From IMG/VR virus record IMGVR_UViG_3300028909_000001: DNA of 64,000 nucleotides; one strand, written 5' to 3'. The notes beneath the pieces were generated by a model. The model ran no database searches and had not been told where the DNA came from. It worked only from the letters and a program-made list of their open reading frames with translations. This stretch comes from a virus. Lineage: Duplodnaviria > Caudoviricetes. The position numbers were made by a program, and so were the translations under genes. Of this stretch, positions 1,919 through 47,374 are shown in pieces (the stretch's first letter is position 1; the number at the start of each line of letters is the position of its first letter).

Positions 1919-4258
1919 TTACTCAAATGATAACTGCTCTTCCAGTTCTTCTGCAAATTTATGGGTCCCAAATCCTTTGGCATATGCAAGCCCTGGTATT
2001 GGAGATGGTCCCTCCAAACTACTAGAAGCTCCAGTATTGACAGCCTTTATTAATCTACGTTCCAGATTAGTACTATATAAGGTATGCATCCAGTCATGTT
2101 CATGTGCTGGGACATCTAATAATCTTTGCATTTCTGGTTCAAATTCAGGTTTTGTCTCATTTACCGTAACATAATCGATATTATGTTTCTTCAACTCATT
2201 AATTACAGTACTGGTGATTCTAGTTCCTATTGTATAGTGTAATTCAGGTATTTCCAAGTATAAACCTTGAGCCATATCAGTTCTGACCTTCTTACTATTA
2301 GTTCTAGGAGAATAGGCTTTCTCCAGTGTATGATAATTTACTATACTGTCTGGCAAGTTATTCCCTAAGCCTTTAGGATTGGTTATTTTAACATGAGTAA
2401 TTAAACCTTTACTTATAATATCAAAATTACGTTTATTTATTCCACCTAATTGACTAGTTTCAAATGTATCTTTAATAGCTTTGGAGAAATACCTTCTACC
2501 TTCTCCAATACCTTTATGCTTTGTTATTTTAGCTGGATTAGGTATACCATCACTTAACACATCACCTTCTTCAACTAGCTGGCCTGATTTAACCAATACT
2601 TTCAAATCTGGGTGTACATAATATTCTTCAAGTTTTCCATTATCATGCTTAATAACTATATAATGACCTCCTTGTGGTGCTACTCTTACTTCTTCTATCT
2701 TACCATCAGAGTCAGCTATTGGGGCTTCATGGACAAATGAATCCGGGATATTAAATAATTGATTGATGTATTTAAAGCCACCAAATTGATTAGAACCAGT
2801 TGCACTACCTCCCTTGTGCTTACTATTATGTACTATTAAGCCATTCGCTAATACAAATAAAGCATCTTTACTATCTACTTCAATATCCCAACATTGTATT
2901 AATCCTAGATACTCTGGTTTATTGTATAGTACTACCCAATAATCATTTGTAGTAACTACATCTATAGTTTCATCAATATCTTTTAGAGGCATTTCTGTTA
3001 ATACATTACTACATTCCAGGGTTTCACAAAGTATCTTATGATTCTCTGTAGCATATAGTTCAATTACTTTATCTTTATTATCTATAAATATATATTTATT
3101 AACAGGTTGTAATCCTTGATTGAATAACCTTAGAACTTTGACTGGAGAGGTTTGACCAGCGTTATCAGAGCCAAGCACCATATCTCCGACCTTTATATCT
3201 TGAATAGCTTTAATAGAATAATCTGCCATTCTTACTAGTGTTCCTTCAGCTAAACAGTTTAACGCCCCTTGTGCTACTGGTTCTGCTGCTGAAGTACCGG
3301 CAACAACTCCAATAAAAGAATTAAGTTCAGACAAGCCTTTACCTCTGATACCCACACATAATTGACAAAGAGCACTAGAAGTTCCATCATGACTAGCTTC
3401 ACAAGTTATAGGATTTCTAACTACAATCTCTTCTATGCCTTTGCTTTTTAGAATACCCAGCATACTAGAGGTAACTTCATTATTATAGTGATATTTGTCT
3501 ATAGGATGAGCTAAGAACGAACCGATGTAATCATTATCATTTGTTTTTACAGGTATTCCATTATGAGTACCACAATCATGTTCTTCTATCACCATTGTCA
3601 TGTTTGCTCTAGCTAATTGCTTGCCTAAAAACCCACCTTCTGCCACTGATAATTTTGTGGCCGCGCTGGCTTGTCTCGCACCAAAAGTATGTGCCAAATA
3701 TTGGGGCAAGGTTAATCCTTCAGCAAAAGATCTATCAATAATAAAATCAGTTAGAATACCGCCTTTATTATCGTTAACGGCTACTGGGGAGAAAATAGTT
3801 TGACGATATTGTTCGGGACTCCCTCTCGCTCCGGCTTTAACTACCTTGGCTAGAGTCTTATTATCTTTAAGGCCTTCTTCTATTATTTCCTTATTTGCAG
3901 TGTCAGAAAACTTGTTGAGCAAATTTGTTAGTTCATCATCTTCTTTCTTTTTAGGTAACTTTTTATCCTTTATGCTCTTAATCTCTTTATTGAGTTCTTT
4001 AAATCTCTCATCTTTAAAGGAGGGTGGAAGCAAGTCACCTAGTCTGACAGTACTACCCAACCTAGTAGCTGATTCAAACCCAAGTCTAGTTAAATCTGAT
4101 ACTACTTTCTTATAACTATCTTCATTATGCTCTGCTAAATTAGAGAAGAAAGCACCTATATTCTTCTTATCCAAATCTTTGCTTTCTATAAATGAATGAG
4201 AGTTAGCAGGAGAGTAATGCTTAAGCAGGATTTTGCCTACTGTTGTTACCTCAGACAT
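1919..4258 (-). CDS. rpoC: Phage RNA polymerase beta' C-terminal subunit with mini-intein
   Basis: TTVGK, AGARGS, SFAEGL, bridge helix GARQASAATKLSVAEGGFLGKQL, HDCGT...CQLCVG zinc site, trigger loop AAEPVAQGALN|SKHKGG. Confidence 0.93.
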   Translation of the reverse strand: MSEVTTVGKILLKHYSPANSHSFIESKDLDKKNIGAFFSNLAEHNEDSYKKVVSDLTRLGFESATRLGSTVRLGDLLPPSFKDERFKELNKEIKSIKDKKLPKKKEDDELTNLLNKFSDTANKEIIEEGLKDNKTLAKVVKAGARGSPEQYRQTIFSPVAVNDNKGGILTDFIIDRSFAEGLTLPQYLAHTFGARQASAATKLSVAEGGFLGKQLARANMTMVIEEHDCGTHNGIPVKTNDNDYIGSFLAHPIDKYHYNNEVTSSMLGILKSKGIEEIVVRNPITCEASHDGTSSALCQLCVGIRGKGLSELNSFIGVVAGTSAAEPVAQGALNCLAEGTLVRMADYSIKAIQDIKVGDMVLGSDNAGQTSPVKVLRLFNQGLQPVNKYIFIDNKDKVIELYATENHKILCETLECSNVLTEMPLKDIDETIDVVTTNDYWVVLYNKPEYLGLIQCWDIEVDSKDALFVLANGLIVHNSKHKGGSATGSNQFGGFKYINQLFNIPDSFVHEAPIADSDGKIEEVRVAPQGGHYIVIKHDNGKLEEYYVHPDLKVLVKSGQLVEEGDVLSDGIPNPAKITKHKGIGEGRRYFSKAIKDTFETSQLGGINKRNFDIISKGLITHVKITNPKGLGNNLPDSIVNYHTLEKAYSPRTNSKKVRTDMAQGLYLEIPELHYTIGTRITSTVINELKKHNIDYVTVNETKPEFEPEMQRLLDVPAHEHDWMHTLYSTNLERRLIKAVNTGASSSLEGPSPIPGLAYAKGFGTHKFAEELEEQLSFE
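2825..3256 (-). mobile_element. Mini-intein (144 aa, no endonuclease) in the beta' trigger loop
   Basis: Starts CLAEGTLV, has block B ATENHKIL, ends LIVHN followed by Ser+1. Confidence 0.93.
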
Positions 4259-4260
4259 AA

Positions 4261-4932
4261 TTAGTGATTGCTATATAGTTCAAATAGAGAAGATTTCTTT
4301 ACTATTTGAAATCTAGCAGGTGTAAGATCTAATACTTTAAGACTGCAAGAAATACCTAATATATCCGCCATAGCTAAGTGATGATGTCCGTCAAGGATAC
4401 TATCATTGAGTAACAATATATACTTATTATTATTCTTGGCTTGAAATTTATCGGCTAAAGCTTTCTTACCTAGTTTAGTCATTTCTTTCTTTATATGAGA
4501 TTTAGCAGATTCGTAGTTATGTATATCTACTTTAGGTAATAGCTCACTAGTTGTCATACCATAAAGTACGAGTTTGGTATCTTTATCAGCTCCAGGAGCA
4601 AATTTTAATACATCTGCTTGAGTATCTTTGGGTAGGCTATTTACTGTAATATCAGCTACATAAGCAGAAGCAACCTTGCCAAATTCAGACTTATTCGGTT
4701 CAGGTTTAGCTATATCAGGCATCCATTTATCAATTTTTTGGTCAACCTCATCTTTAGTACGATTTGTTAGTGGCTGATTCTGTTCCTGGGCATGTAAAGC
4801 TGGTTGTTCGATTTCTTCTGTTTCTTCAGCATTAACTAGCTGGTCTAGTAAGGATGAAGCAGCCTTCTTTACTTTTACATCCTTGGACTCTGCTGACTTT
4901 TCAAGAAATGATTGGATAACATTAAAGTTCAT
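4261..4932 (-). CDS. K-x-A protein with C-terminal ParB/Srx-like motif
   Basis: KSAE, KAAS and KVAS motifs; ILDGHHHL resembles the ParB-N DGHHR motif. Confidence 0.55.
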   Translation of the reverse strand: MNFNVIQSFLEKSAESKDVKVKKAASSLLDQLVNAEETEEIEQPALHAQEQNQPLTNRTKDEVDQKIDKWMPDIAKPEPNKSEFGKVASAYVADITVNSLPKDTQADVLKFAPGADKDTKLVLYGMTTSELLPKVDIHNYESAKSHIKKEMTKLGKKALADKFQAKNNNKYILLLNDSILDGHHHLAMADILGISCSLKVLDLTPARFQIVKKSSLFELYSNH

Positions 4933-4934
4933 TG

Positions 4935-5636
4935 TTAGATTTCTGGATTTCCGCCTGGTTCATCTTCACCATTATCATATTCACTATCTTCTGATTTTCT
5001 ATGCTTGCTATATAGATAAGCCCCTAAACCACCTAAACCTGCAGCGCCCAAACCTAATTCATAAGGAACTTTGTTGTTACTAATATGATTGGATAATACT
5101 TCAAATAAAGATTGGGGAGAAATATCATTCTTATGTAAAGCTTGTTCTGCTCCAGTTATAGCTCCATGTATACTAGGTTTAATAGTAGTATTAGCATTTA
5201 CATTATTAAATACATTACCTAATCCTTGACCAGCATAATGAGCACCTATGCCTCCACCTACTCCAAGTCCGGCAGCAGTACCTAGTCCCATGTCACCAAC
5301 TGATTTACTTTTGAATAGTTTACTCAATACGGATTTGGCATCAATATTAGCTGGTTCTGGTTTACTATTTAATTTAAGTTGATTTCCTCCAAAGCCATCT
5401 AATTTAATCTTATTACTTATAGAACCTAGATTAAGTTTACTAGATGGAAAGTCAGAACTAGAAGGAGCTTTAGGTATAGCTAAATTAGAAACAGCTGCCT
5501 CTGGTATAGAAGCACCAGTAGCCTCAGTAGCACCAGTAACTTCAGGTTTAAGTACATTAGCCAATTCTTCAAATGACTTAATAGGATTTGCAGAAGCTTT
5601 AATAAATCCGTTAATAAATGCGTTATTTAGATTCAT
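4935..5636 (-). CDS. FINGFIKA-leader protein with glycine zippers
   Basis: N-terminus MNLNNAFINGFIKASA; GLGTAAGLGVGGGIG and LGLGAAGLGGLG. Confidence 0.75.
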   Translation of the reverse strand: MNLNNAFINGFIKASANPIKSFEELANVLKPEVTGATEATGASIPEAAVSNLAIPKAPSSSDFPSSKLNLGSISNKIKLDGFGGNQLKLNSKPEPANIDAKSVLSKLFKSKSVGDMGLGTAAGLGVGGGIGAHYAGQGLGNVFNNVNANTTIKPSIHGAITGAEQALHKNDISPQSLFEVLSNHISNNKVPYELGLGAAGLGGLGAYLYSKHRKSEDSEYDNGEDEPGGNPEI

Positions 5637-6286
5637 ATACCTAGACCTTGTTGGGGTTGGGCTGATTGTGCTGGTTGGGTTGGTTGTGCAGGATTACTAC
5701 CATCCATCGGCCCACTACCATAAATACCTCCACCCATCATACCTTGTTGTTGCTGTTGTTGCATCATTTGTTCTTGTTGTTGCTTCTGCTGTTCTTCTCT
5801 CTGCTTCTGTTGCTCTTCCCTATGCATCTTAGCACGTTCATATTGATGCTTTTCTTTTAATTGTTCAGTCTTCAAATGACTCTGTGTTGCCTTCCCGCCA
5901 CTATGTAAATCTAATAGATCAGCTACACTTAATGTAACTGTAGTATCTTTTAACCCTCTAGACTGTTGTTTTGGGGCTAAATCATCACTTTGTCCTGGTT
6001 GTGGCTGACCTCCCTGACTCAGATCTTGCTGAGGTTGACCCTGGCCTTCTTGTTGCATTCCTTGGCCTTGACCCATTTGTTGAGCTAATTGAGCCATCTG
6101 TTGTGGGTCTGGTTGTTGACCTGATCCACCTTGACTTGGTTGTGGAGATTGTGAAGATTGTGGAGGTTGAGGTTGTTGCCCAGGTAAACCTCCTTGTTGT
6201 TGAGCAGCAGTACTATTAGGTGATGGTATAAATGCTTGTTTATGCATCATACTACCTATTTCTTCTAAGATTTGTCTGTAAGTCAT
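5633..6286 (-). CDS. Gln/Gly/Pro-rich low-complexity K-x-A protein
   Basis: HKQAF near N-terminus; long Q-rich tracts around a short ordered core. Confidence 0.75.
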   Translation of the reverse strand: MTYRQILEEIGSMMHKQAFIPSPNSTAAQQQGGLPGQQPQPPQSSQSPQPSQGGSGQQPDPQQMAQLAQQMGQGQGMQQEGQGQPQQDLSQGGQPQPGQSDDLAPKQQSRGLKDTTVTLSVADLLDLHSGGKATQSHLKTEQLKEKHQYERAKMHREEQQKQREEQQKQQQEQMMQQQQQQGMMGGGIYGSGPMDGSNPAQPTQPAQSAQPQQGLGI

Positions 6287-6349
6287 ATTAAAATTGGTAT
6301 TATCTCTATTTCAAAGTTCTATCTATTATGGAGATTGATGGTAGTTATA

Positions 6350-6571
6350 TTAATGATACTTTTGTAATAGTTTCTCACTTTCCCAGGCCACAGCTTCATC
6401 AATAATAAATTCTTCCAAGGATTTTTTAACATTAGCTAATCTACCTTGGTCTATTCTACCCTTTAATTTACTTTTAGGCAAATCAATATCTCTTAGTTGA
6501 GTTAGAGCTTCTATCAACTTATCTAATTTCTGTTGTTCGTTCAATACTAACCATACATCTCTAGTTATCAT
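6350..6571 (-). CDS. Hypothetical protein
   Basis: ATG-started 73-aa ORF filling the operon gap. Confidence 0.6.
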   Translation of the reverse strand: MITRDVWLVLNEQQKLDKLIEALTQLRDIDLPKSKLKGRIDQGRLANVKKSLEEFIIDEAVAWESEKLLQKYH

Positions 6572-6587
6572 ATAAGGTCTTCTTCTT

Positions 6588-8309
6588 TCATTTCTCTATT
6601 TCTATGTTGTCTCCTGGCTCTAAATCACCTCTGTTATATGCAGCAACTACTTCTTGTTCAGTTTTATATTTTTTAGGAGTGTTATGTTTGTTTTCTGTAC
6701 TTAGTCCATAAAGGCCCAAAGCTGCTTCATTACTAGGGATTAATACAGGTTGAAAAGATTTAACAGATAATAAATTTTTGCTAGGCATCATTTTAGCTAT
6801 AACTTCTTTACGTGCTTCTTCAGTGCCTGGAATATGGACATTAAGTTGGTCTCCGTCGGAATTTTTTGTATATCCTCCTATAGTTAAGAAACTTCCGTAG
6901 TTTGGTATTTCCAAATCGTAAGCAGTATTAGATTGTAACTTAGTTACTCTTTTAACTTTCTTCCATTTTAAACTACCATTATACACCTTACCTAAATATG
7001 ATATCCATTGTTCATTATTCTTTAACTCAACTAGAAGTATTTCAATTATTTCTTTTAAAGTGCTTTTACGAAATCTATCTGTTTTAAATTCCTGGCTTAA
7101 TCTATATTTTAAATTATAAAGTTCCTTATTCTTTTGTAATTTATATTTATTATTAATAGCTGTAATTATATTTTTTTTAACAGTTTCTGAAGGAAGTGGT
7201 ACTAAGTCATTAAAGTTATCACCTATACCTGTTATATCTTTTAAGCTATTCTCTAATTTTTCCTTCTTCAACTCATGACTTATTCTAAATTTTGTTCTTT
7301 CAACTAACTTTTTAAATGTCCCAGTATGAAATCTGAAGGAGAAATTATCTTTACTACTCAGCCTAGATGCCCCTTTATATACTCCATAATTTAAATTTAA
7401 CCGTTTACTCATATATCTTAAACCGTTAATTAAATGAATTGATGATGTGCAGATACTTATATTTATAACTGTTTTATTAGAAGAACTGACACTTACTGTT
7501 CCATCAGTTGAGATTAACCCATCTAATATACCTAGTAGATGTTCTTCAGGACCGTTTAAACTAAAAGTAGGTATTTTCTTATTAAAAGCTCCACTCCCTA
7601 TCTGCTCTTTTAACCACTTATTAAACCAGGCACAAGAAGCTCTAGTTTTACCTCTAGAAGTAAATTGCCCCATCATATTCTCACTAACTCTATCTATTTC
7701 TTTAACTCCATTTTCATAAGGAAGATATTCACTATTACATAAATCAGCAAATACTTTTCTATTCATTAATTTTTCTTTGGTAGAACCGGCTAAGAAAAGT
7801 TGATTAGCATTATCTACCCAACCATCACCTAAAACCATTCCTATAAAAAGTCCGGTTTTATAATTAAGTTGCAAGTTAAATGAATTTTTAACAAATCCTT
7901 TTCCTCGTATTCCTTTCATTCCTCTAGTACCCATCATACCTTCAGCTAATACACTTGATTGAATATTGGGTGCTATAGTTGTAACATCACTAGGACAATA
8001 CCTACCTACTGCCTCTTCGGTATCAACTTCTTCAATACCACTATCAGTATAAGCTAATAAACTATGATCTTTGGCTGCAAATATAAAATCCCCATCTATA
8101 AATTGTACCAAATATAAAGGTACATTAGGATGAATCGAGAATGTCTTTGGATTTACCCAATCTACTTCACCAGTTATAAGGTTTAATGATTTTACTTCTA
8201 CATTACTAGGTACATCATAAAGGATATTACCATTTATAGTAGTAGTGGCTGAATTTTCTATTCTAGGGAAATCTGAAATAGGTACTAGTGTATATTTATA
8301 ATTAATCAT
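6588..8309 (-). CDS. rpoC: C-terminal split-intein half with LAGLIDADG endonuclease, fused to beta' middle segment (SDGDQLNVHIP...)
   Basis: Block B AAKDHSLL, LAGLIDADG motifs GMVLGDGW and DGLISTDGT, intein end GGYTKN|S; C-extein matches the DGDQMAVHVP region of bacterial beta'. Confidence 0.9.
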   Translation of the reverse strand: MINYKYTLVPISDFPRIENSATTTINGNILYDVPSNVEVKSLNLITGEVDWVNPKTFSIHPNVPLYLVQFIDGDFIFAAKDHSLLAYTDSGIEEVDTEEAVGRYCPSDVTTIAPNIQSSVLAEGMMGTRGMKGIRGKGFVKNSFNLQLNYKTGLFIGMVLGDGWVDNANQLFLAGSTKEKLMNRKVFADLCNSEYLPYENGVKEIDRVSENMMGQFTSRGKTRASCAWFNKWLKEQIGSGAFNKKIPTFSLNGPEEHLLGILDGLISTDGTVSVSSSNKTVINISICTSSIHLINGLRYMSKRLNLNYGVYKGASRLSSKDNFSFRFHTGTFKKLVERTKFRISHELKKEKLENSLKDITGIGDNFNDLVPLPSETVKKNIITAINNKYKLQKNKELYNLKYRLSQEFKTDRFRKSTLKEIIEILLVELKNNEQWISYLGKVYNGSLKWKKVKRVTKLQSNTAYDLEIPNYGSFLTIGGYTKNSDGDQLNVHIPGTEEARKEVIAKMMPSKNLLSVKSFQPVLIPSNEAALGLYGLSTENKHNTPKKYKTEQEVVAAYNRGDLEPGDNIEIEK

Positions 8310-8382
8310 ATAGACACAATACGGTGACTAGTTGAACTTGTCAATTAATTTTCTCTCTATAAATAATATAATCTACAATACT
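6861..8382 (-). mobile_element. Split intein in the RNAP catalytic motif (IntN 13 aa at 8344-8382; IntC at 6861-8309)
   Basis: Joining the exteins gives YGAD+SDGDQ; IntN SIVDYIIYREKIN is followed by TGA. Confidence 0.85.
8316..8344 (-). promoter_or_regulatory. sigma70-type promoter for a leaderless IntC transcript
   Basis: TTGACA(8344-8339)-N17-TATTGT(8321-8316)-N6-ATG(8309). Confidence 0.75.
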
Positions 8383-11094
8383 ATCCGCACCATACCCCTT
8401 AAATACTAATGGATTCATTTTAATAGTTTTATCTTTAGAATTTGGATTAGCAATTAAATTAAACCCTAATAGATTATATTTATGCCAGGCTGGATCTCGC
8501 GTTATAATACCAGGTCTTACTGCCATCTCTTCCTTTAATGCCATAACTGCTAATGGACTATGTTTTTTAACATAATCAACCGCACTAATAGCTGGTACAC
8601 CCTTCATAACCAACCTTCTAATAACAAAAGGTTTATATATCTGCCACAGCATATCTTGAGGTACACTAGCCTGGTCTACATCCAATCTAGTATCTGGAGT
8701 TAACACAGCTCTTCCCACCAAATCCAGACTCTTATTAACCACCTTACTCTGAAACATTGTACTTTTAGCCGTTCCACCCTTTAATCCAAACATAGTAGCT
8801 AATATACCTTTAACATTCTTATCCTGGTGTTTCTTATTAATTGGATCACCCAAACCAAAGGCAGCTTTTACTCCATCATATTCATTTTGTTTTAATTTCC
8901 TAACTACTTCGTCCGGCACATTCTCAGTATTTTTAAGTGCATTGTTATTTAGTATGAGGTCTTTATATAGATTATTAACATCACTAGTTAATACTACATC
9001 ACCCATCTTACTAGCAGGTCTGTATTGGGCTGGTAGAATAGGTACTTTATGCAACATCAAATCTTTAGGATGTAACTTATGTTCTTTTAGTGTAGTGAGA
9101 AATTCTAACAATTTAACGGCATCATCTCTTCTAGTCTTCTTCTCACTACCTATATACTTCTTCATTTCTTCTATCTTCTTATCCAGATCTATATTATTAA
9201 GGGCTTTTTCCATTTCCCCATCCACTACCATATCATTAAACTTAAACTTGGTAACTCCTAACAACTTTCTGAGATAATCCTCACTAATAGGATTAGGTAT
9301 GGGATGATTAAGATTTATGTGATTAAACTTGTCACCTAATATGCCTATTATATTAGGATCAAATAGTCCGCCAGGTTCATGTATTAGTTCTTCTTGATGT
9401 GGCTTGAATAATGAAGGTTTCTTAATTTCACCATTACTCAAAGCAGTAGTATCCTTATCTGTTAAAGGTAGGATATTAAAGGTATTACCAACTCTATCTA
9501 CATTAATACCGGCAGCTTTTAAACTATCTATGAACTTGTTAAAGATGAATGGAACTTTAGGGCTGGGTGGGGTTTGGCCCAATTTAATAGCACGCCAGAA
9601 TTCATCATTCTGAGTACCTTTAACAGTACCTATATCCTCCAATACATGTCTGACATCATGACTTAGCAAAGCTGTAGTACCTAAATTTCCTATTCTCTTT
9701 GATGAACCACCTTCCACTGCTGACTTACTTGGTTGCCGGTCGAAACTGTATCCGGACCCCTGACTTCTAGTACTTAGTTTATCTTCACTAATATGAGTTA
9801 ACCTACTATAGAATAATGGACCTACAACTGCTTCAATATTTCTACCAGTAATTGGATCATATAGTTGTTCAGTATCATTTATATTATTCTTCTTTAATAC
9901 ATTAATTACATTCTTAATAGATGAATCCTTTCTAAACTGATCCATTTTAATAGTCTTACCAGTCTTCTCAGCTAATTTACCAAGGCCTAGAGTTATGGCT
10001 AAGGCTGGTGCAACTCTTGACGTGATGGACATGGAGTTAAGCATGATATCAACTGGCTTCCCATTAGGTAGTAGTGGAGCTTGTGAGTCTGATACAATCT
10101 TCGTTACACCCTTAGCTCCAAAGTAATTAGAAATCTTATCACCAGGTAATAGACTTCTTACCGTCTTGATATGTACTGTAATAAGTGGGCCATGTTTGGT
10201 TACATCCACTACTTCTCCATCATGTTCGTAGTCCCAGGCTTCTGAATTATCTTTGAATGCATGTTTTAATACTTTACTCAGCTTACCTAATGCCAAATCT
10301 GTACTCTTTAATGCTCTGGGTGAGTAAGCCAGGATTACCGGGTCTCCAGCTTTCAATCTAGACCCTACTATAACCACTCCATCTGAATCTATATTTTTAA
10401 TTTGATTATTCGTATATTTATTAGGAAATAGTGCTACAAATTTATCCTTGCCTGCCTCTACTCCAAATTTCTCTTCAATACTAAAATTGATCATTTGTTC
10501 TGCTGCCAACTTTTTAGCACCACTTTCAGTCACTGCAAAAGCATCCTCAAAGTTGTCTGAGCGGTACGGGATTATAGCAGTAGTAAGGTTAGTTCCCATC
10601 GCCATATTACCTTCTTTATCATTATAATTACTGTAAGCTATTACTTCATTAGTTTTAACTTTATCACCAACCTTCACTTTAGGGGTATGAGTAATAAAGC
10701 TTTTCCTGCCTAAATGAAAGTTATTATATAGTTGATAGGTAGACTTGGTTTTATCTGTATTATCTACTTTAATATGATTTTCAGTAACTTCAGTAACAGT
10801 ACCAGGTTTAGTTGCAGTTACAGATAAATAATGTTTACCATATAGTTCTTGAGTACTTTCTTTGTTAGTGTCATCTGAACTTTCTACTAACGGACGTTCA
10901 GGATTTACTAAAGGTATAGCTTGGAGAGAAGCCTTGGCTCCTAGTAACACACGCCCGCCGGAAACTGAATTTAGCCCAGTAATCATGTTAGTAGGTAAAG
11001 CAAATAAATCCCTACTCGAAGGCATGGATATATGATCTTCATTTAGTTTGTCCACCTTCTCAAAATTTCCCTTATTAAGTACAGTATAACTCAT
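8341..11094 (-). CDS. rpoB: RNA polymerase beta C-terminal / beta' N-terminal fusion ending in IntN
   Basis: Beta motifs RVLLGAKASLQAIPL, NFEDAFAV, GDKISNYFGAKG, RLTHISEDK; beta' motifs GGLFDPNIIG, VPILPAQYRP, SDVNNLY, TRDPAWHK, NPLVFKGYGAD; start moved to ATG 11094 (TATAAT-N6-ATG). Confidence 0.93.
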   Translation of the reverse strand: MSYTVLNKGNFEKVDKLNEDHISMPSSRDLFALPTNMITGLNSVSGGRVLLGAKASLQAIPLVNPERPLVESSDDTNKESTQELYGKHYLSVTATKPGTVTEVTENHIKVDNTDKTKSTYQLYNNFHLGRKSFITHTPKVKVGDKVKTNEVIAYSNYNDKEGNMAMGTNLTTAIIPYRSDNFEDAFAVTESGAKKLAAEQMINFSIEEKFGVEAGKDKFVALFPNKYTNNQIKNIDSDGVVIVGSRLKAGDPVILAYSPRALKSTDLALGKLSKVLKHAFKDNSEAWDYEHDGEVVDVTKHGPLITVHIKTVRSLLPGDKISNYFGAKGVTKIVSDSQAPLLPNGKPVDIMLNSMSITSRVAPALAITLGLGKLAEKTGKTIKMDQFRKDSSIKNVINVLKKNNINDTEQLYDPITGRNIEAVVGPLFYSRLTHISEDKLSTRSQGSGYSFDRQPSKSAVEGGSSKRIGNLGTTALLSHDVRHVLEDIGTVKGTQNDEFWRAIKLGQTPPSPKVPFIFNKFIDSLKAAGINVDRVGNTFNILPLTDKDTTALSNGEIKKPSLFKPHQEELIHEPGGLFDPNIIGILGDKFNHINLNHPIPNPISEDYLRKLLGVTKFKFNDMVVDGEMEKALNNIDLDKKIEEMKKYIGSEKKTRRDDAVKLLEFLTTLKEHKLHPKDLMLHKVPILPAQYRPASKMGDVVLTSDVNNLYKDLILNNNALKNTENVPDEVVRKLKQNEYDGVKAAFGLGDPINKKHQDKNVKGILATMFGLKGGTAKSTMFQSKVVNKSLDLVGRAVLTPDTRLDVDQASVPQDMLWQIYKPFVIRRLVMKGVPAISAVDYVKKHSPLAVMALKEEMAVRPGIITRDPAWHKYNLLGFNLIANPNSKDKTIKMNPLVFKGYGADSIVDYIIYREKIN

Positions 11095-11185
11095 ATTTTG
11101 ATTATATACTCTTATTATTGATTTCCACAACCTCAAACTTTAGTCTTTAATTAACCTGGAATATACATTAAACTAGGTTAGATTT

Positions 11186-11536
11186 ATGAAGAGTTGGATT
11201 ATTATTGTATTTAGCTTGATTAGTATTAGTATTGAAGCACAACAATTAAATAAAGTCTATCTAAATCACTTATTAGACGCTATTTATCTAGCTGAGGGTG
11301 GGGCTAATACTAAATATCCTTATGGAGTGATTGGAGATTTTAAAAAGAGTCCAAGAATTATAGCTGCCAATACTATAAAACATAATTACAATAACTGGTT
11401 AAATAGTAGTTCTAAAACAGATTTCTTAAGATATCTACAACAACACTATTGTCCTATAAATGCTAAAAATGACCCTAATCATTTAAATGATAACTGGTAT
11501 AAGAATGTATCTTTAATAATGAAACAGTATGAATAA
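11186..11536 (+). CDS. Secreted lysozyme-like / transglycosylase-like protein
   Basis: Signal-peptide-like N-terminus; AIYLAEGG...PYGV...HYCP...LNDNWYKNV pattern. Confidence 0.55.
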   Translation: MKSWIIIVFSLISISIEAQQLNKVYLNHLLDAIYLAEGGANTKYPYGVIGDFKKSPRIIAANTIKHNYNNWLNSSSKTDFLRYLQQHYCPINAKNDPNHLNDNWYKNVSLIMKQYE

Positions 11537-12206
11537 GTTAGATGCATTTATTAATGGTTTTATCAAGGCTGCTGGCCCACTCCCTCCACCTCCTCCACCT
11601 CCTACACCTCCTACACCTCCAAAAATTCCGATGATTTCATTACCACACAATGCTTATACTGTTGGTGGTCTCCCTCCAAATATGCATAATTTTGTTAATA
11701 AAGGTGGTAATACCCTTAATATAAATGCTCACGGTGGTCCTGATAGTGCTATTAATGGAGAATATGCATTTCAAAGTGATTCTAATAATTCTAAAAACTT
11801 GCTTTATAACAATGAACCACTAACTTATACTCCTCAAACATTGGCTAAACTTATTGGTCCAGCTACTAACAATATCAATAATATTTATACTACTGCTTGT
11901 AATGGTGGGGATTGCTCCAATACTAATGTGAGTCCAAACGAAGTGCTTAAAGGGTTTGCTACTCCAGCTATGTACCGTAAATTATTCCCTAATCTTACTA
12001 ACGTTGTTCAAATCCCTCCCAGGCATTATGGTCCATTAATTCCAAGTCAATTTAAGACTAATGAATACCCAGACGTAGTGAATATAATAAATAGAATTAT
12101 TAAAGATAGGAATCCTAATGATCCAATAACTACAAGCTTGCCTCATCAATATAATCTACAAGGTGGTACTAATTGGGTGGATAAAGGGACTTACTATAAT
12201 TACTGA
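11529..12206 (+). CDS. FINGFIKAA-leader protein with Pro linker and possible clan CD cysteine protease domain
   Basis: MNKLDAFINGFIKAAG, poly-Pro, LNINAHGG (H68) ... IYTTACN (C124). Confidence 0.6.
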   Translation: MNKLDAFINGFIKAAGPLPPPPPPPTPPTPPKIPMISLPHNAYTVGGLPPNMHNFVNKGGNTLNINAHGGPDSAINGEYAFQSDSNNSKNLLYNNEPLTYTPQTLAKLIGPATNNINNIYTTACNGGDCSNTNVSPNEVLKGFATPAMYRKLFPNLTNVVQIPPRHYGPLIPSQFKTNEYPDVVNIINRIIKDRNPNDPITTSLPHQYNLQGGTNWVDKGTYYNY

Positions 12207-12207
12207 T

Positions 12208-15063
12208 ATGACAGACCGACACAATGTATATGTAGTTGAATTGGATAAGGAGGTCTTAGCTAAAAAAAAGTTTTTAAAGTTGAATCCTAACTACAATCCA
12301 GAACTACCTCCACTTTATGTAGGAGAGACTGGTTTGAGTCCTGAAGCTAGATTCGAGAAACATAAAACTGGACTAAAAGCCAATATCTGGGTAAAGAATC
12401 ATGGGCTTAGACTTAGGCCTGAACATTATAAAGATTTAAATCCCATGCCATTTCATAAAGCTGAAAGAACCGAGGAATGGTTGGCAAAGAAGTTAAGGGC
12501 TGAGGGTTATCCAGTAGTAGGTGGGAATCCTAGAACCGTACCTTTGAAGAAGGAGGCTGGTGAAGAAGCGTTACAACCTCAACAAGCTAGAGTAATTAAG
12601 AAGATTCAAGATAAGAATACTTCAGGGTTAGTGCTTTATCATGGGATGGGTAGTGGAAAAGGATTGGTTATAGGCTCAAAGATATTAACACCTACAGGGT
12701 GGATAAATATAGAAGATATAAAACAAAACACAGAAGTGATTTCTGTTAATGGTGTGAAAGCTAATGTGACTGGAGTCTATCCTCAAGGGTATAAAGATGT
12801 GTATAAAATTACTTTTAGGGATGGTGCTACTATAGAATGTGATGATTCTCATTTATGGTTCACTCAATCTAGATGTGAACGTAAAAATTACGTTAAAAGC
12901 AAGGATCAATTTAAATATAGGTGGGTAGGTAAAGTCAGGAGTACAAGCGAAATTAAAGATACAGTATTATCTAATGATAATAGTTTAAATTATACTATTC
13001 CTATTGTGAAACCTATTCATTTTAAATATAGAAAACTTCCACTAGACCCGTATTTTGTTGGTTTGATTTTAGGAGATGGTAGTATTTGTGGAGGTGGCTG
13101 TGCGATAACAACAGCAGATGACGAAATTCTGCAATCAATTAAGTCTTTATTTCCAAATTTTACTCTTAAAAAATATTCTAAATATACTTATGGATTAGGT
13201 AAACCAAAAGGATATAACAGTTACATTGTTCAAGCATTTAAAGAATTAAAATTACAAGGTATGAATTGTTTTACAAAATTTATACCTGATATTTATATGT
13301 TTAACACAGTGAAATCTCGCATAGCATTATTACAAGGGTTAATGGATACTGATGGTACTGTAAGTAAAGATGGTATGGCTATAGTTTATGAGTCCGTCTC
13401 AAAACAGTTAGCAGATGGTGTGCAATTCCTTGTTGAATCACTAGGAGGTTTAGCAAAGATAACAACTAGAATTCCAACATATTCATATAAAGGAGAAAAA
13501 AAGAAAGGAGCTTTATGTTATAGGGTTTGGTTAAGTTTACCACCAAATATCAATCCATTTAGATTACACAGAAAAGCAATTCAAGTAATTCCTAAGACTA
13601 AATATAAACCAACTAGATATATAAAAAGTATAGAATATGTTGGAAAAAAAGAGACAATCTGTATTGCAATCGATGACCCTTCTCATCTATATATTACTGA
13701 ACATTGTATAGTTACGCACAATACACGCGAAAGTATTGAATCCTGGAAAGCATTAGGATTACCTAAGACTGATATCATTGTTCCAGCTTCATTAAAATCC
13801 AACTATCGTAAAGAGTTGCAGAGATGGTATGGCAATTCTAATCCTTCTAATATCAACTTAATTAGTCAACAAAGATTTGCTAATTCTAAGTTAAATACTC
13901 CAATATACAATACTGGTTTGCAGATAGTAGATGAAGCTCAAAAAGCTAAAAATAGTAATAGTGAATTATATCAAGCATTGGTTAAAACGAATCCAGCCAA
14001 GCGCCTTCTCCTTTCAGGAACTCCAATTCTAAATGATCCTACTGAATTAAGTAATCTTGTTAACTTAGTAGCAAAGAAACAAGTATTACCTAATAATTTA
14101 TCTGAGTTTAAAAAACAATATTTTAAACAGGAAGAAGTTAAACCTGGATTTTTTGGTAGATTAATGGGAGTTTCTCCAGGCATTCAATATAAGCTACAGA
14201 ATAAAGCTCAACTATCTAAGATTCTGGATAAGTATGTTGACTACTATAAACCTACTCAAGAAGGATATCCTACTGTGACGGAGCAAGAAGTTAATGTTCC
14301 TATGGGTGCTAAACAACAAGAGATATATGATACAATACTCGGAAAGACACCATTTTGGACACGTTATCGAATTAAACATAATTTACCTCCTGGACGTGGT
14401 GAATTAGAAGGTATGCGAGCATTTTTAAGTGGACCTAGACAAGTAAGCAATTCAACTGCTGGATTTACTAAAAATTTAAGAGACGTGGAATCCCCTAAAA
14501 TAGATGCAGCTTTTAAGTTTTTACAAATACAATTAAAACAAGATCCAAACTATAAAGCTCTAGTATATAGTAATTATCTTAATAATGGTCTTAGACCTTA
14601 TGAATCATTATTAAGAAAGAATAATATACCATTTGGAGAGTTTAGTGGAGCTGTAACACCTACTATAAGAGACCAGGCAGTTAAAGATTATAATGCTAAT
14701 AAATTAAGAGCATTATTAGTATCAGGAGCTGGGGCTGAAGGATTGGATTTGAAGGCTACAAATTTGACACAACTTTTGGAACCTTTTTGGAACCTTCCTA
14801 AAGAGAGACAAGTTATCGGAAGATCAGTACGTTTCCATAGTCATGATAGTTTGCCTCCAGAAAAGAGAAAGGTTTTAGTGCAACGTTATTTTGCCACACC
14901 AAAACCTAGTTTATTGGATAAACTTACATTCAATCCCAAACCTACTGGTACAGATTCATATATTAGAAATTCAATCAGTAAACCAAAAGATAATCTTAAT
15001 CAAGAAATAACTAATTTAATAGCCAAGAATCAAGAACCTAAATCTTGGCTTAACTACAATTAA
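12208..15063 (+). CDS. GIY-YIG-like domain fused to an SNF2/SF2 helicase with intein
   Basis: VYVVEL...LYVGETG; Walker A GMGSGK|T, DEAQ, LLLSGTP, GAEGLDL, QVIGRSVR; start moved to ATG 12208 (TATAAT-N7-ATG). Confidence 0.9.
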   Translation: MTDRHNVYVVELDKEVLAKKKFLKLNPNYNPELPPLYVGETGLSPEARFEKHKTGLKANIWVKNHGLRLRPEHYKDLNPMPFHKAERTEEWLAKKLRAEGYPVVGGNPRTVPLKKEAGEEALQPQQARVIKKIQDKNTSGLVLYHGMGSGKGLVIGSKILTPTGWINIEDIKQNTEVISVNGVKANVTGVYPQGYKDVYKITFRDGATIECDDSHLWFTQSRCERKNYVKSKDQFKYRWVGKVRSTSEIKDTVLSNDNSLNYTIPIVKPIHFKYRKLPLDPYFVGLILGDGSICGGGCAITTADDEILQSIKSLFPNFTLKKYSKYTYGLGKPKGYNSYIVQAFKELKLQGMNCFTKFIPDIYMFNTVKSRIALLQGLMDTDGTVSKDGMAIVYESVSKQLADGVQFLVESLGGLAKITTRIPTYSYKGEKKKGALCYRVWLSLPPNINPFRLHRKAIQVIPKTKYKPTRYIKSIEYVGKKETICIAIDDPSHLYITEHCIVTHNTRESIESWKALGLPKTDIIVPASLKSNYRKELQRWYGNSNPSNINLISQQRFANSKLNTPIYNTGLQIVDEAQKAKNSNSELYQALVKTNPAKRLLLSGTPILNDPTELSNLVNLVAKKQVLPNNLSEFKKQYFKQEEVKPGFFGRLMGVSPGIQYKLQNKAQLSKILDKYVDYYKPTQEGYPTVTEQEVNVPMGAKQQEIYDTILGKTPFWTRYRIKHNLPPGRGELEGMRAFLSGPRQVSNSTAGFTKNLRDVESPKIDAAFKFLQIQLKQDPNYKALVYSNYLNNGLRPYESLLRKNNIPFGEFSGAVTPTIRDQAVKDYNANKLRALLVSGAGAEGLDLKATNLTQLLEPFWNLPKERQVIGRSVRFHSHDSLPPEKRKVLVQRYFATPKPSLLDKLTFNPKPTGTDSYIRNSISKPKDNLNQEITNLIAKNQEPKSWLNYN
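12661..13722 (+). mobile_element. Class 3-like intein (354 aa) with LAGLIDADG endonuclease
   Basis: Starts GLVIGSKILTPTGW; DDSHLW, TICIAI and IVTHN|T give the WCT signature; GLILGDG and GLMDTDG motifs. Confidence 0.9.
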
Positions 15064-15883: not shown

Positions 15884-16678
15884 ATGCATTTAAATGAACA
15901 CTTTATTAATGGTTTTATTAAGGCTGCTCTAACTAATCCAGGCAATATTAGTCAACCTAAGCCAGCTCCTAAACCCAGCTCTCCACCTATTCAATCAGCT
16001 CCTTCACCTAACCCAGCTCCACCTCCTCCTTTAGCCAACACTCCTCCACCTCAAGTTCTACCTACTCAACCACCTACTAATCTAAATCATGGTATTATGC
16101 CACAATATGATGGTTGGAAATTGAGGGGATATGCTAAATCTAATAATGGTGGAACTTATGATTACCAAGATACTGCTGGTAAGTATCATTTAATGAATCA
16201 TGAATTAGGTGAAGGTGCTCAAAGTTTGGAGGATTTTAACAACGATAATAGTATATCTAATGAAAAACCAATTGCTAGACAAGCTATTACTCCAGAAGTA
16301 GAGAACCAAGCTTTGCGTTCAGCTTATAGTAATTTAGGGAAACCAGATCTGGATTTGAATAGATCTGCTAACGATATATTAGGTGATCCATATACTAGTG
16401 TTGGTCTTCCTAGAGTAGATAGCGTTACTAGAGGTGGTAGTCCTGAACCTGATCCTAATGAGTTATATCAAAGACTGCAACACAATATGACGAATAATAA
16501 CGGTCTATTCGATCAATTACAAAGTGCTGCTAATGGTCTGCCTGGTAGATTGTGGAATAGTGATCCTGGAATTCATGAACAAGGTATGGGTCAACTATTG
16601 CAGATGGTTAAACATCTAGCCACTACTAATCCACCTTTAGCTCAAGAATTGTATCAGAAGTACTTTGGGCAAAATTGA
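15884..16678 (+). CDS. FINGFIKAA-leader protein with Pro linker and unknown cargo domain
   Basis: MHLNEHFINGFIKAAL followed by a Pro-rich tract. Confidence 0.75.
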   Translation: MHLNEHFINGFIKAALTNPGNISQPKPAPKPSSPPIQSAPSPNPAPPPPLANTPPPQVLPTQPPTNLNHGIMPQYDGWKLRGYAKSNNGGTYDYQDTAGKYHLMNHELGEGAQSLEDFNNDNSISNEKPIARQAITPEVENQALRSAYSNLGKPDLDLNRSANDILGDPYTSVGLPRVDSVTRGGSPEPDPNELYQRLQHNMTNNNGLFDQLQSAANGLPGRLWNSDPGIHEQGMGQLLQMVKHLATTNPPLAQELYQKYFGQN

Positions 16679-16683
16679 TAGTT

Positions 16684-16720
16684 AAAAAAGAGGTTGAGTT
16701 TGCACTCTCAACCTGTTGTT
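16684..16720. terminator. Intrinsic terminator between convergent genes
   Basis: AGGTTGAG/CTCAACCT stem flanked by an A6 tract and a T-rich tract. Confidence 0.75.
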
Positions 16721-16725
16721 TTAAC

Positions 16726-17166: not shown

Positions 17167-17219
17167 ATTTTTTGTCTTTCATCCTTTTGCTTAGTTTGTT
17201 ATGCTGGGATTGTATTGTT

Positions 17220-17244
17220 AAAAAAGAGGGATGATTAATCCCTC
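17220..17244 (-). terminator. Intrinsic terminator
   Basis: GAGGGAT/ATCCCTC stem followed by a U tract on the minus strand. Confidence 0.65.
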
Positions 17245-17252
17245 ATGAAATA

Positions 17253-17749: not shown

Positions 17750-17763
17750 TAGGTAAGTGAATT

Positions 17764-19241: not shown

Positions 19242-19242
19242 A

Positions 19243-32503: not shown

Positions 32504-33202
32504 GTGAACAATCATATAGATCCATTATATAGTTTGCCTATTCCAAAGAATGTGCGTGGTTTTTTCGATCCAGAGAAGACTAGGGAATGGTTACATACTA
32601 AAGCCTTGGATTCTTTTCAGAAGAAGCTTAATACAATTGAAAGTCCAGCCTACAAACTAAAAGTAACAGACTTATCTTATAATGCTCCTGAACATTCTCC
32701 AACTTATAAAGAACAAAATAAGGCTATAATGGAGAAAAGAGATTTGTCCACTCCATTACGAGGTACTTTTCAGATGATAGATAAGAAAACTGGTAATGTA
32801 TTAGATACCAAAACTACAACTATCGCTCATATCCCCTGGCTTACTGAAAGGAATACAGTAATCTTACATGGTGCGGAATACTCAGTTGCACATCAACAAC
32901 GTTTACTACCAGGTGTCTATACTCGTACTAAGGAATCTGGAGAAGCTGAAGCCCACATCAATGTCTTACCTGGAACTGGAGTAGGTGGCAAAGTAATTTT
33001 TTACCCTGACCGTGCATTATTCGTTTATCAAGTTGGAACTACTCAAATTAAGCTATATGGATTACTTAAAGAAATGGGCGTATCTGATAGTGAGATGGAG
33101 AAAGTTTGGGGTTCTGAAATATTCAATAAAAATAAATCTCAATATACTGGACTAGAATTTGATAAATTGTATAATAAAGTCATAGGTAATGAAGAAGAAT
33201 AA
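32504..33202 (+). CDS. rpoB: RNA polymerase beta N-terminal subunit
   Basis: STPLRGTFQMID, IAHIPWLTERNTVILHGAEYSVAHQQRLLPGVY, LYGLLKEMGVSDSEM match the beta domain 1 region. Confidence 0.85.
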   Translation: MNNHIDPLYSLPIPKNVRGFFDPEKTREWLHTKALDSFQKKLNTIESPAYKLKVTDLSYNAPEHSPTYKEQNKAIMEKRDLSTPLRGTFQMIDKKTGNVLDTKTTTIAHIPWLTERNTVILHGAEYSVAHQQRLLPGVYTRTKESGEAEAHINVLPGTGVGGKVIFYPDRALFVYQVGTTQIKLYGLLKEMGVSDSEMEKVWGSEIFNKNKSQYTGLEFDKLYNKVIGNEEE

Positions 33203-33214: not shown

Positions 33215-33499
33215 ATGTCGAACGAAACACAATTAGAACAGCAATTGAATGCTGAATGGAGAAAAACTATTAAAGATAATCTTGAAGAACTCAGGACTGG
33301 TCAAAAACAATTAGCTAAGGATATTACTGATATTAAGCTAAGTTGTGCTCAAGCAGATGAAGTAAAAAGTCTGAGAGAAAAGGTCGAAAAACTTGAATTA
33401 TCTAAAGCTAAAACTACTGGAGTATTGGTAGCCGTAAATGTGATATTAATTTTTGCGGGCTGGTGTATTCAGACTTTACTGCTTGTACATCATAGTTAA
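33215..33499 (+). CDS. Coiled-coil protein with C-terminal TM helix (holin/XhlA-like)
   Basis: Heptad-rich N-terminus and hydrophobic C-terminus. Confidence 0.55.
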   Translation: MSNETQLEQQLNAEWRKTIKDNLEELRTGQKQLAKDITDIKLSCAQADEVKSLREKVEKLELSKAKTTGVLVAVNVILIFAGWCIQTLLLVHHS

Positions 33500-34146
33500 G
33501 CAGGCCTTCTTCTTTCATTTCTTGGTAAGTTGAATTGTAGATATTTCTCATACTTTCTAGTCAGTCCAATTCTGTCTTCTAGAAAGCCTTGATAAATATA
33601 GTTACCGAATTTATAACCACCACAAATGCTAGGTATAACTATTCTAGAACCCTTATGTCCAGTTTTTTTATTAATCTCCCTCCCTATTCTATAATGAATC
33701 TCCATAGGTAATACTAATTTCTCAAAAGCAGACCAATCTTGAGTGTAGGGACCACAAATACTATAAGAACAATGACCATCTCTGGATATACAAAAACAAC
33801 CATCCCCATCACTGTAACCCCTCCACCAGTAATGAGTTAGGTTTTCAGGTATAATGCTTAATATTGTAGGAGCTTGATCTTTACTTCTATAATTGTAACT
33901 AATTAATTTAGTTGCTAATTCTACACTACCTTTTTGAAAACTCATTTGTAATTGCCCTGGTGGATTTGTTTTTTGTATATTTCTACGTATATTCCAATTC
34001 CAGGCTTTCATAAGTGTTGGTTCAATAATTACTGCATCAACTTGTTTTATAGCTATTTTAATTTTATTTTCTTTAGATATAGACCCGTCGGCCCAGATAA
34101 ATCCTAACGTATATGCTGTCTCTGCTGTTATATTAGTTAAATCCAT
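33496..34146 (-). mobile_element. Free-standing LAGLIDADG homing endonuclease
   Basis: AYTLGFIWADG and WWRGYSDGDG; start moved to ATG 34146 behind TTGACA-N17-TACTGT-N6. Confidence 0.85.
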
Positions 34147-34152
34147 ATAATG

Positions 34153-34181
34153 ACAGTACACATTAGCTACCACGCTGTCAA
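34153..34181 (-). promoter_or_regulatory. sigma70-type leaderless promoter of the endonuclease
   Basis: TTGACA-N17-TACTGT-N6-ATG. Confidence 0.7.
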
Positions 34182-34280
34182 TATTATAGCGCATATATCT
34201 GTTGACTAAACTTATAATAATAGTTAATATAGAAATATACGAATAAACAATTATGTTTATTTTAACTAATTATACAATCT

Positions 34281-46669: not shown

Positions 46670-46687
46670 GAAGCCCTCTTCTTTCAT

Positions 46688-47374
46688 TTAGTATTCAGGG
46701 ATTAATACTTGTTTATCTAGAATTTCTTTGTGACTCATCCATTTAAGTTTTCCGTGCTTATCCTTCATAATCCTATATAAATTACAATCTGCTCCTTTAG
46801 CTACATTTTGATTTATATAATTAGTAACACCTATCTTCGTGTTTTCTGCAATATGAACGGGATCATAAAAGCCAAAACTAGAAGGACTTACATTTCTAGA
46901 TTCATCTGGTATTGCTGACTCTGATACAATTCCTCCCTGCCCCATCTTAGTTACTTTATGACTATTATCAAAGTGTTCTAATGGATTAATACCTTCAACG
47001 TTATTAGCTAAAGGATTTCCTACAATAACCGACCTGACTTGCTGAGAGAAGAAACCAGGAGTAAGCCAGTTAAGATTCTTTTTCATTTGCATTTTATAAG
47101 CTGCTTTTTGTTGTATTTTACCTGCATCCTTATTTATATGGTCGGCTATAAAATCCTCTAGTCCCATAAATTTGGAGAATTTAAGGTTATCTCGATCATC
47201 ACCTTCAACCTCACCTTTATTAATCTTAATTAATTTTGCTGAACTAGCTAATAAGACTTGGGGACTTATTTTATCCTCATCTACTCCAATATTATTCTTA
47301 ACAATATCTTTATCTAGGGAGGTATGATTTAACCATTCCTTAAATTTAGTTAGTTTCTCGGTTCTAGTTAACAT
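46688..47374 (-). CDS. rpoB: RNA polymerase beta middle subunit (fork-loop region)
   Basis: GDDRDNL, INPLEHFDNSHKVTKMGQGG, RNVSPSSFGFYDPVHIAENTKIGV correspond to DDIDHL / NPLSEITHKRRISALGPGG / [24 protein letters not shown]. Confidence 0.87.
   Translation of the reverse strand: MLTRTEKLTKFKEWLNHTSLDKDIVKNNIGVDEDKISPQVLLASSAKLIKINKGEVEGDDRDNLKFSKFMGLEDFIADHINKDAGKIQQKAAYKMQMKKNLNWLTPGFFSQQVRSVIVGNPLANNVEGINPLEHFDNSHKVTKMGQGGIVSESAIPDESRNVSPSSFGFYDPVHIAENTKIGVTNYINQNVAKGADCNLYRIMKDKHGKLKWMSHKEILDKQVLIPEY

Follow-up and report, generated by a model that had tools for sequence, protein, structure and literature searches.

A bacterial-type RNA polymerase in five scattered genes of a large peat phage, with beta joined to beta' and a predicted split intein in the metal loop

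Here we describe an RNA polymerase encoded by a large, uncultured phage from peat soil. The DNA analysed, referred to as the window, is a stretch of 64,000 nucleotides (Duplodnaviria; Caudoviricetes) that corresponds to bases 48898-112897 of the 151-kb IMG/VR viral record IMGVR_UViG_3300028909_000001 (G000; CheckV completeness 69%). Five of its genes, scattered over both strands, quite probably encode a single, functional DNA-dependent RNA polymerase of the phage, a reduced bacterial-type core made as four chains and lacking alpha, omega and the zinc ribbon of beta'. A single open reading frame (ORF) links the C-terminus of beta head-to-tail with the N-terminus of beta', beta' is cut about 90 residues past its metal loop, and beta is cut twice more. 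We found no published account of this fused-and-split layout in the literature.

Five genes that tile beta and beta'

An earlier interpretation of this DNA, made from the letters without database searches (the sequence-only reading), had proposed that five pieces across about 45 kb tile the bacterial beta and beta' sequences and give four mature chains, one with the end of beta attached to the start of beta'. ORFs are present at all five of the positions it named, the pieces tile when aligned to the RpoB and RpoC profile models and to the polymerase of Salmonella phage Arash, and the four chains are supported as one enzyme. The features of the polymerase locus are the following (aa, amino acids; a slash in a motif marks an intein junction).

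32504-33202, plus strand: beta-N gene, 232 aa, N-terminal module of beta, positions 36-227 of the rpoB model TIGR02013
46688-47374, minus strand: beta-mid gene, 228 aa, Rpb2 domain 3 or fork region of beta, Pfam Rpb2_3
9496-11094, minus strand: beta-C part of the fusion, residues 1-533, catalytic barrel, flap and clamp end of beta
8383-9495, minus strand: beta'-N part of the fusion, residues 534-904, ending ...GYGAD with the first Asp of the metal loop
8341-8382, minus strand: putative split-intein N-fragment, 13 aa (SIVDYIIYREKIN), and stop codon, following ...GYGAD
8310-8340, minus strand: spacer between the intein halves, 31 nucleotides (nt), read from the sequence
6861-8309, minus strand: putative split-intein C-fragment, 483 aa, with LAGLIDADG nuclease domain, ending ...GGYTKN
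6588-6860, minus strand: beta'-mid C-extein, 90 aa, starting SDGDQLNVHIP, with the other two Asp of the metal loop, up to the beta' cut
1919-4258, minus strand: beta'C gene, 779 aa (635 aa if spliced), bridge helix, trigger loop, second Zn site and jaw
2825-3256, minus strand: mini-intein, 144 aa (CLAEGT...LIVHN/S), in the trigger-loop motif, Pfam Hint and Hom_end_hint

Pfam RNA polymerase domains are matched by four of the ORFs (8341-11136, 46688-47374, 1919-4258 and 6588-8309), and beta-N matches the rpoB model. Tiling was assessed on the NCBIfam models rpoB TIGR02013 and rpoC TIGR02386 and on the Arash proteins gp206 (1525 aa) and gp216 (606 aa). The Arash proteins provide the strongest test: beta-N, beta-mid, the fusion and beta'-mid cover residues 12-227, 240-469, 484-1434 and 1402-1524 of gp206, and the fifth ORF, beta'C, covers residues 1-397 and 342-599 of gp216. 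Searches against solved structures in the Protein Data Bank (PDB) agree with this tiling. Compared to bacteria, two regions are absent, namely the lobe region of beta (about rpoB 228-370) and the beta' Zn ribbon with part of the clamp. A hidden gene for the beta lobe was considered and rejected: the ORFs at 47376-48116 and 31692-32501 carry no polymerase signal and, since gp206 is tiled gap-free, no polymerase piece is missing. Judged from the sequence, the catalytic residues are intact, with GDK...GAKGV in beta and with GAD/SDGD, the bridge-helix region and the second Zn site in beta'. Every piece is single-copy, so that this genome and five relatives described below (G000 and G001-G005) each hold one polymerase set. 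With both inteins out, the predicted mature chains are 232 aa (beta-N), 228 aa (beta-mid), 994 aa (betaC-beta'N-beta'mid) and 635 aa (beta'C); one trans-splicing and one cis-splicing would turn the products of five genes into these four chains.

The enzyme had also been described as close to cellular RNA polymerase, a description that holds in part. The bacterial-type profiles phrog_24349 and phrog_25354 are matched at E 1e-44 and 1e-26 to 1e-29, phiKZ-type PHROGs at 1e-10 to 1e-15, and to this extent the enzyme is nearer the bacterial type. However, identity to bacterial beta and beta' is about 25%, the best scores lie far below the NCBIfam equivalog cut-offs (178 versus 896 bits for NF001616; 186 versus 963 bits for TIGR02386), and a long stem leads to the bacterial outgroups in the tree presented below.

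The join lies within the ORF at 8341-11136, which matches Pfam Rpb2_6 (E 4.8e-45), Rpb1_1 and Rpb1_2 together and covers rpoB from position 601 to the end and rpoC 157-442. Its beta-C part reaches positions 536-1093 of the 1096 in NF001616, matches bacterial beta in the PDB at E 5.8e-43 and keeps the two double-psi-barrel lysines of beta (GDK...GAKGV aligned to bacterial GDK...GNKGV). The gene starts at the ATG at 11094, as the sequence-only reading had it, and encodes 917 aa; this N-terminus is shared by more than 100 clusters of 990-1000 aa fusions. The TTG at 11136, from which the ORF list counts this frame, is not its true start. In the alignment with bacterial beta', the beta' half opens at its own N-terminus (SNGEIKKP versus bacterial S.GEVKKP) directly after the end of beta, and the join is therefore end-to-end, as in cellular RpoBC fusions. 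It connects the very C-terminus of beta to beta' at about residue 35, with the Zn ribbon deleted, and fusion residues 540-917 hold no Cys. The covalent link between beta and beta', together with non-covalent docking of beta-N and beta-mid, would replace the role of the alpha dimer in assembly.

Beta-N and beta-mid lie 21-38 kb from the fusion gene in the window. Beta-N matches bacterial beta in the PDB at E 1.9e-7; beta-mid matches rpoB 371-527 and E. coli beta 426-576. Both are stand-alone genes in the five relatives (219-252 aa for beta-N), and beta-mid is also stand-alone in P0128 and P0129. Directly after beta-N stands a homing-type endonuclease gene (33496-34194, minus strand; phrog_4645, E 1.5e-20), and the fragmentation and dispersal of the beta gene may have been aided by mobile nucleases. 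Near residue 150, several beta-mid homologues (P0127, P0131, P0132) carry an interruption. The ORF at 47376-48116 (minus strand, 246 aa), directly upstream of beta-mid and in the same direction, matches phrog_19005, a family of unknown function (E 1.3e-33).

Beta'C aligns to rpoC 549-1068 (E 8.6e-55) and matches Pfam Rpb1_5 and Rpb1_4. Its trigger-loop motif is interrupted by the mini-intein, which has the classic features C1, HN and S+1 and would splice in cis, restoring the trigger loop. In the relatives beta'C is intein-free (617-645 aa), and matches to them jump from query residue 334 straight to 478. This second intein adds to what the sequence-only reading had described.

The layout is not confined to one assembly. 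A scan of the IMG/VR viral contigs with a single protein returned no related loci, and an alignment query recovered the relatives G001-G004 (182-204 kb, 93-100% complete) and G005; G003 has terminal repeats. In each of the five, beta-mid, beta-N, the fusion and beta'C occur once as stand-alone genes, ordered and oriented relative to one another as in the window. All pieces are full-length open frames, orthologues being 46-78% identical, and the loci of the relatives span 17-34 kb, versus 45.5 kb in the window. The window DNA itself is held in 14 peat metagenome DNA runs, and a single Logan contig, which may derive from the source sample, spans positions 1900-11200 (9.3 kb) with zero differences. 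Contigs from peat metatranscriptome libraries cover all polymerase genes colinearly; because contigs from RNA libraries can contain DNA, they suggest expression in peat rather than show it.

The metal loop and its split intein

The three-Asp metal loop of beta' is spread over two ORFs, ...GAD at the end of one and SDGDQ... within the other, and becomes whole only if the split intein splices. After ...GYGAD the fusion gene continues as S-IVDYIIYREKIN-stop; the 31-nt spacer follows, and then the 483-aa fragment ending KN/S. The downstream ORF (6588-8309) begins MINYKYTLVPIS... and matches Pfam LAGLIDADG_3, Intein_splicing and the end of Rpb1_2, while its C-extein matches rpoC 439-534 and beta' in the PDB at E 3e-9. 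The intein that the sequence-only reading had placed before beta'-mid is confirmed, in the form of a split intein with a LAGLIDADG domain. Intein-less relatives run uninterrupted through GAD[NSC]DGDQ in proteins of 991-998 aa. The same split recurs in two relatives (P0006/L003 and P0007; 72-75% overall identity), both of which have a conserved N-fragment of 13-14 aa and retain the terminal Asn and Ser+1.

The spacer of L003 is 24 nt (2838-2861) and has the motif TCACCGTAT(A)TTGT in common with the spacer of the window. No Shine-Dalgarno-like sequence is present in the intein spacer. The two phages sharing the motif have proteins of 75% identity, and the motif may signal translation or transcription of the downstream intein half.

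In the proposed mechanism, the 917-aa fusion and the 573-aa downstream protein would associate via the split intein, with the 13-aa N-fragment supplying the first strand of the Hint fold. Trans-splicing between Ser1 and Ser+1 would then write GAD-SDGD and complete the three-Asp Mg site in the 994-aa chain. A structure model of the complex supports binding of the N-fragment to the downstream protein, without being proof of it: fusion residues 904-917 pair as a strand with residues 2-15 and 36-40 of the downstream ORF and also contact residues 474-481, beside the C-junction. The interface score ipSAE is 0.83, versus 0.01 for the best control, a mark reached by 51 of 78 solved complexes and by 2 of 108 mismatched pairs. 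The model runs agree in at least 48% of contacts.

Other ways of joining the two ORFs were considered. Joining at the RNA level is unlikely, since a contig from an RNA library runs colinearly across the intein gap and joints were not observed. A ribosomal bypass like that of T4 gene 60 was suggested by the codons ATT AAT, which precede the stop and recur at codons 2-3 of the next ORF; it was rejected as L003 lacks matching take-off and landing codons. We also dropped the notion that Ser+1 is selected for splicing. Intein-less relatives read GADSDGDQ or GADCDGDQ as well, so Ser+1 is not by itself evidence of splicing. Where bacteria read NADFDGD, intein-less IMG/VR alleles (L016-L029) have GADSDGDQ, GGDSDGDQ or GADCDGDQ; a Ser or Cys at +1 without an intein could be the footprint of intein loss or a ready-made homing site.

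The nearest characterised likeness is the atypically split, cysteine-less intein PolB16 OarG (PMC10189870), which likewise comes from a phage or metagenomic source, has a short N-fragment that ends the upstream gene, uses Ser1 and Ser+1 and is split after the first strand. Its N-fragment is 15 aa and its C-fragment 168 aa, compared with 13 aa and 483 aa including a LAGLIDADG nuclease here. Unlike in PolB16 OarG, the host site here is the metal loop of a polymerase, and splicing is predicted from sequence and model. Contiguous LAGLIDADG inteins occupy two other sites within beta-C in the relatives P0005, P0033 and P0056, one after ...RSQGTGY and the other inside GDK/..GAKGV, at the catalytic lysines. 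The fused-polymerase family is thus an intein hot spot.

Companion genes, packaging and alternative readings

Three further genes bear on how the enzyme would be used.

16055-16693 of G000:C1, outside the window: sigma-like ORF, 213 aa, Sigma70_r3 and phrog_351
12163-15063, plus strand: SNF2-type helicase, itself carrying a LAGLIDADG intein, next to the fusion gene and divergently oriented
1-549, minus strand: start of the gene following beta'C, a homologue of gp218, a structural protein of Arash

The profiles for alpha (PF01193) and omega (PF01192) find no match at E<=1 in the window record or in the four relatives that are 93-100% complete, nor does the second alpha profile PF01000 in the window record; all 14 control genomes were matched. 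With the window record 69% complete, its lack of alpha and omega would be weak evidence alone, and the complete relatives strengthen it. The earlier statement that neither alpha nor sigma is visible in the window stands, and extends to the whole record for alpha. For sigma, however, a conserved candidate lies elsewhere in the genome. This ORF matches Sigma70_r3 at 28.8 bits (cut-off 25.3), phrog_351 at 2e-11 and FliA/WhiG-type NCBIfam models at 1e-7, with weak matches in regions r2 and r4, and has an orthologue at 42-47% identity in each of the four other genomes searched. From its sequence, this protein would give promoter recognition.

The helicase matches Pfam SNF2-rel_dom, Helicase_C and LAGLIDADG_3, and over its C-terminal part it shares 33% identity with Arash gp217 (E 1.5e-75). 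An SNF2 helicase stands at the same position in relatives; it measures 966 aa here, intein included, versus 466-598 aa there. It is likely a companion of the polymerase and would act as a RapA-like partner. Counting its intein with those of the polymerase, at least three inteins fall within 15 kb.

The gene after beta'C matches the Arash locus 26194-26685 (gp218; tblastn E 2e-10) and, in L009 and L010, the genes of 732-747 aa located after beta'C. L010 (GCA_013565555.1, JACCDP010465492.1, 219,933 bp) is a 63%-identical relative found within an NCBI assembly whose contig numbers run beyond 465,000; it is probably a phage that was co-sequenced in a genome project not aimed at phages. A leader of the form ..AFINGFIKAA/S.. 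(here A or S at the last position), often followed by Pro-rich low-complexity sequence, is shared by unrelated small proteins at 4935-5636 (minus), 11529-12206 (plus), 15884-16678 (plus) and 27804-28565 (plus). Two of these genes flank polymerase genes, and the leader-bearing neighbours that the sequence-only reading had pointed to are real; the polymerase pieces themselves are without the leader. No transfer RNA was found anywhere in the window. GC content is 0.41-0.435 at 16001-24000, where long ORFs are few, versus about 0.34 in the rest.

In Arash virions, gp206 yields the most spectra of any protein, and gp216, the helicase gp217 and the sigma factor gp10 are also detected (PMC10585845). 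By analogy with these data and with the shared placement next to the structural gene, we lean towards the enzyme being packed in the virion. On the same analogy, it would be made late, packed and injected, and would then begin transcription without need of the host polymerase. A less likely though still credible course is that an enzyme of the same layout stays unpackaged and serves as a middle or late polymerase, early transcription being left to the host RNA polymerase. The absence of the FINGFIKA-type leader from the polymerase pieces would fit this, as would the presence of one polymerase set only, which must also serve the late genes. Against it stand the Arash homologues, which are among the most abundant virion proteins, and the setting of the polymerase genes among structural and tail genes, including the gene after beta'C that matches an Arash virion protein. 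That the metal-loop intein does not trans-splice, leaving five non-covalent chains (perhaps after C-terminal cleavage) or a dead allele, we hold to be very unlikely. The N-fragment is indeed short, its Ser+1 has counterparts in intein-less alleles, and the penultimate intein residue is Lys, not His. Yet three lineages at 72-75% identity retain the N-fragment, Ser1, the terminal Asn and Ser+1, and their stop positions agree to within one codon; a 13-aa tail and a 483-aa domain left in the Mg-binding loop are hard to square with catalysis; in the complex model the tail takes the place of the missing Hint strand, next to the C-junction; and the genome holds no other polymerase.

Several points nevertheless weigh against the functional, spliced and packaged enzyme that we favour. 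The shortest characterised N-intein is 15 aa (PMC10189870), and atypically split inteins typically have N-fragments of 15-25 aa (PMC11923092), so that trans-splicing with 13 aa is a prediction from sequence and model. In the complex model the partner has a predicted local distance difference test (pLDDT) score of only 41-45, and split-intein complexes were in the training data; an AlphaFold2 model of the 917-aa fusion alone, from a 10-row alignment, is poor (mean pLDDT 50.4, predicted template modelling score 0.25). Packaging is extrapolated from a relative at about 30% identity, and function and splicing in this phage and its sub-clade are likewise read from sequence and models. A far more sceptical account, that decay of a polymerase gene or chimeric assembly (the latter raised by the sequence-only reading) produced the scattered pieces, is barely conceivable. 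The genes are unusually fragmented, on both strands over 45 kb, and the record is an incomplete metagenome assembly. But five other viral contigs, one of them with terminal repeats, have the same four loci in unchanged order and orientation, which argues against both chimerism and decay; the pieces are full-length frames with intact catalytic motifs, and the 14 DNA runs and the 9.3-kb contig without differences speak for the assembly. At the other extreme, the layout might be a distinct assembly solution in which the covalent beta-beta' link stands in for the alpha dimer, the extra cuts and obligatory trans-splicing form an activation checkpoint (for example at head filling or after injection), and the cuts mark autonomous folding modules of all multisubunit polymerases; we consider this whole proposal improbable. 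What emerges is a real and conserved four-chain polymerase, most likely functional, whose active site would depend on an ultra-short split intein.

Known polymerases and the wider family

The best database matches of the enzyme, at about 30% identity, are the polymerases of Arash (gp206 and gp216) and of the Vibrio phages D69, D148 and D181 (1527 and 609 aa). These share the end-to-end beta-beta' join, the beta' cut about 90 aa past the metal loop and, as inferred from the gap-free tiling of gp206, the missing beta-lobe segment (rpoB ~228-370). They also share the SNF2 helicase (gp217), a sigma factor gene and the adjoining gp218-like structural gene. In the Arash type all of beta and beta'-N are on one chain, giving two chains in total, whereas here beta-N and beta-mid are separate, and two inteins interrupt beta' here, unlike in Arash. 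The Arash paper labels gp206 as 'beta' only and leaves the fusion undescribed (PMC10585845).

Polymerases of the phiKZ/AR9 type have beta and beta' each split, come in two paralogous sets and use no sigma (PMC7824862; PMC13282480); a beta-beta' join of this kind is undescribed for them. They share with the present enzyme the composition of an alpha-less phage polymerase from beta and beta' fragments, a beta' cut in a similar region and a linked Swi2/Snf2 helicase, and one of their sets is packed in the virion. They differ in that the phage described here has the join, one set and a sigma-like gene and is far less divergent from bacteria. The claim that the architecture differs from phiKZ/AR9 is thus upheld as regards the join, the number of sets and sigma; the fused core, however, is shared with Arash and D69. 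Weinheimer and Aylward (2020) described mReC, 97 contigs of Caudovirales with cellular-like beta and beta' (PMC7481178). The mReC phages resemble the present one in being large, tailed and uncultured and in having beta and beta' that match COG0085 and COG0086, carry the NADxDGD motif and branch deeply off cells; the beta-beta' join, extra cuts and inteins are unmentioned in that paper.

Cellular RpoBC fusions (PRK09603, PRK14844) likewise join beta and beta' head-to-tail, and the fusion ORF matches both models on both halves. In them both subunits are complete (about 2840-2890 profile positions) and function together with alpha and omega, in contrast to the beta-C and beta'-N found here, and the scores of the fusion ORF lie far below the cut-offs (157 versus 5372 bits). 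The cuts resemble those of other cellular enzymes. The C-extein reaches about position 549-554 of the 619 in rpoC1_cyan and beta'C residue 44 corresponds to rpoC2_cyan position 23, close to the gamma/beta' split of cyanobacteria and plastids; the cut between beta-mid and beta-C lies no more than about 40 residues from where the archaeal B' model starts (an extrapolated position), close to the archaeal B''/B' split. These boundaries are near but not identical, and those enzymes are without the beta-beta' fusion. The 'beta/beta'' of Ralstonia phage RP13 was considered as another fusion and rejected, since its beta' comes in two distinct pieces, of 517 and 486 aa.

More than 1000 homologues of the fusion protein were found. 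Rpb2_6 and Rpb1 domains occur together in every one of the best 120; 112 of these are 983-1032 aa long, and the rest are the three split-intein alleles (916-917 aa), one protein of 960 aa and four of about 1330 aa, with contiguous inteins in the 3 that were inspected. An exhaustive search with beta-mid returned 1025 clusters at 50% identity, 880 of them with E <= 1e-10. Mapping the five window pieces onto the best 150 beta-mid matches, some of which may be truncated at contig ends, gave 94 proteins of the Arash type, with beta-N, beta-mid and the fusion region in one chain, 19 that begin at beta-mid and run into the fusion region, 18 with beta-N and beta-mid only and 19 with stand-alone beta-mid. 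None of these 150 contains beta'C. In P0156, NADFDGD stands at residue 1358 of 1451, which again places the beta' cut about 90 aa past the metal loop.

The beta-beta' join and the beta' cut are therefore not unique to this phage, being found also in Arash, Vibrio phage D69 and hundreds of metagenomic clusters. It is the three-way cut of beta that is special to the sub-clade and the new part of the finding. In a quick maximum-likelihood tree of the region from beta-C to beta'-mid (44 rows, 990 columns, two bacteria as outgroup), the split-beta group forms one clade (SH-aLRT, an approximate likelihood-ratio test, 100), which sits in an unresolved base with three unsplit lineages, on a long stem to the two bacteria. 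Most simply, the three-way cut would be derived. The enzyme is the most fragmented version of this large phage polymerase family seen so far.

Thus, the phage offers a natural dissection of the bacterial core enzyme, with no alpha, omega or zinc ribbon, with beta tied to beta', and with three further cuts at or near sites where archaea and cyanobacteria also cut their subunits. If active, the 13-aa cysteine-less split intein would have the shortest natural N-fragment, and would therefore be of practical interest for protein semi-synthesis. With 880 beta-mid clusters and cultured members such as Arash and D69, the family is an accessible system in which to study minimal polymerase assembly and host-independent transcription by phages.

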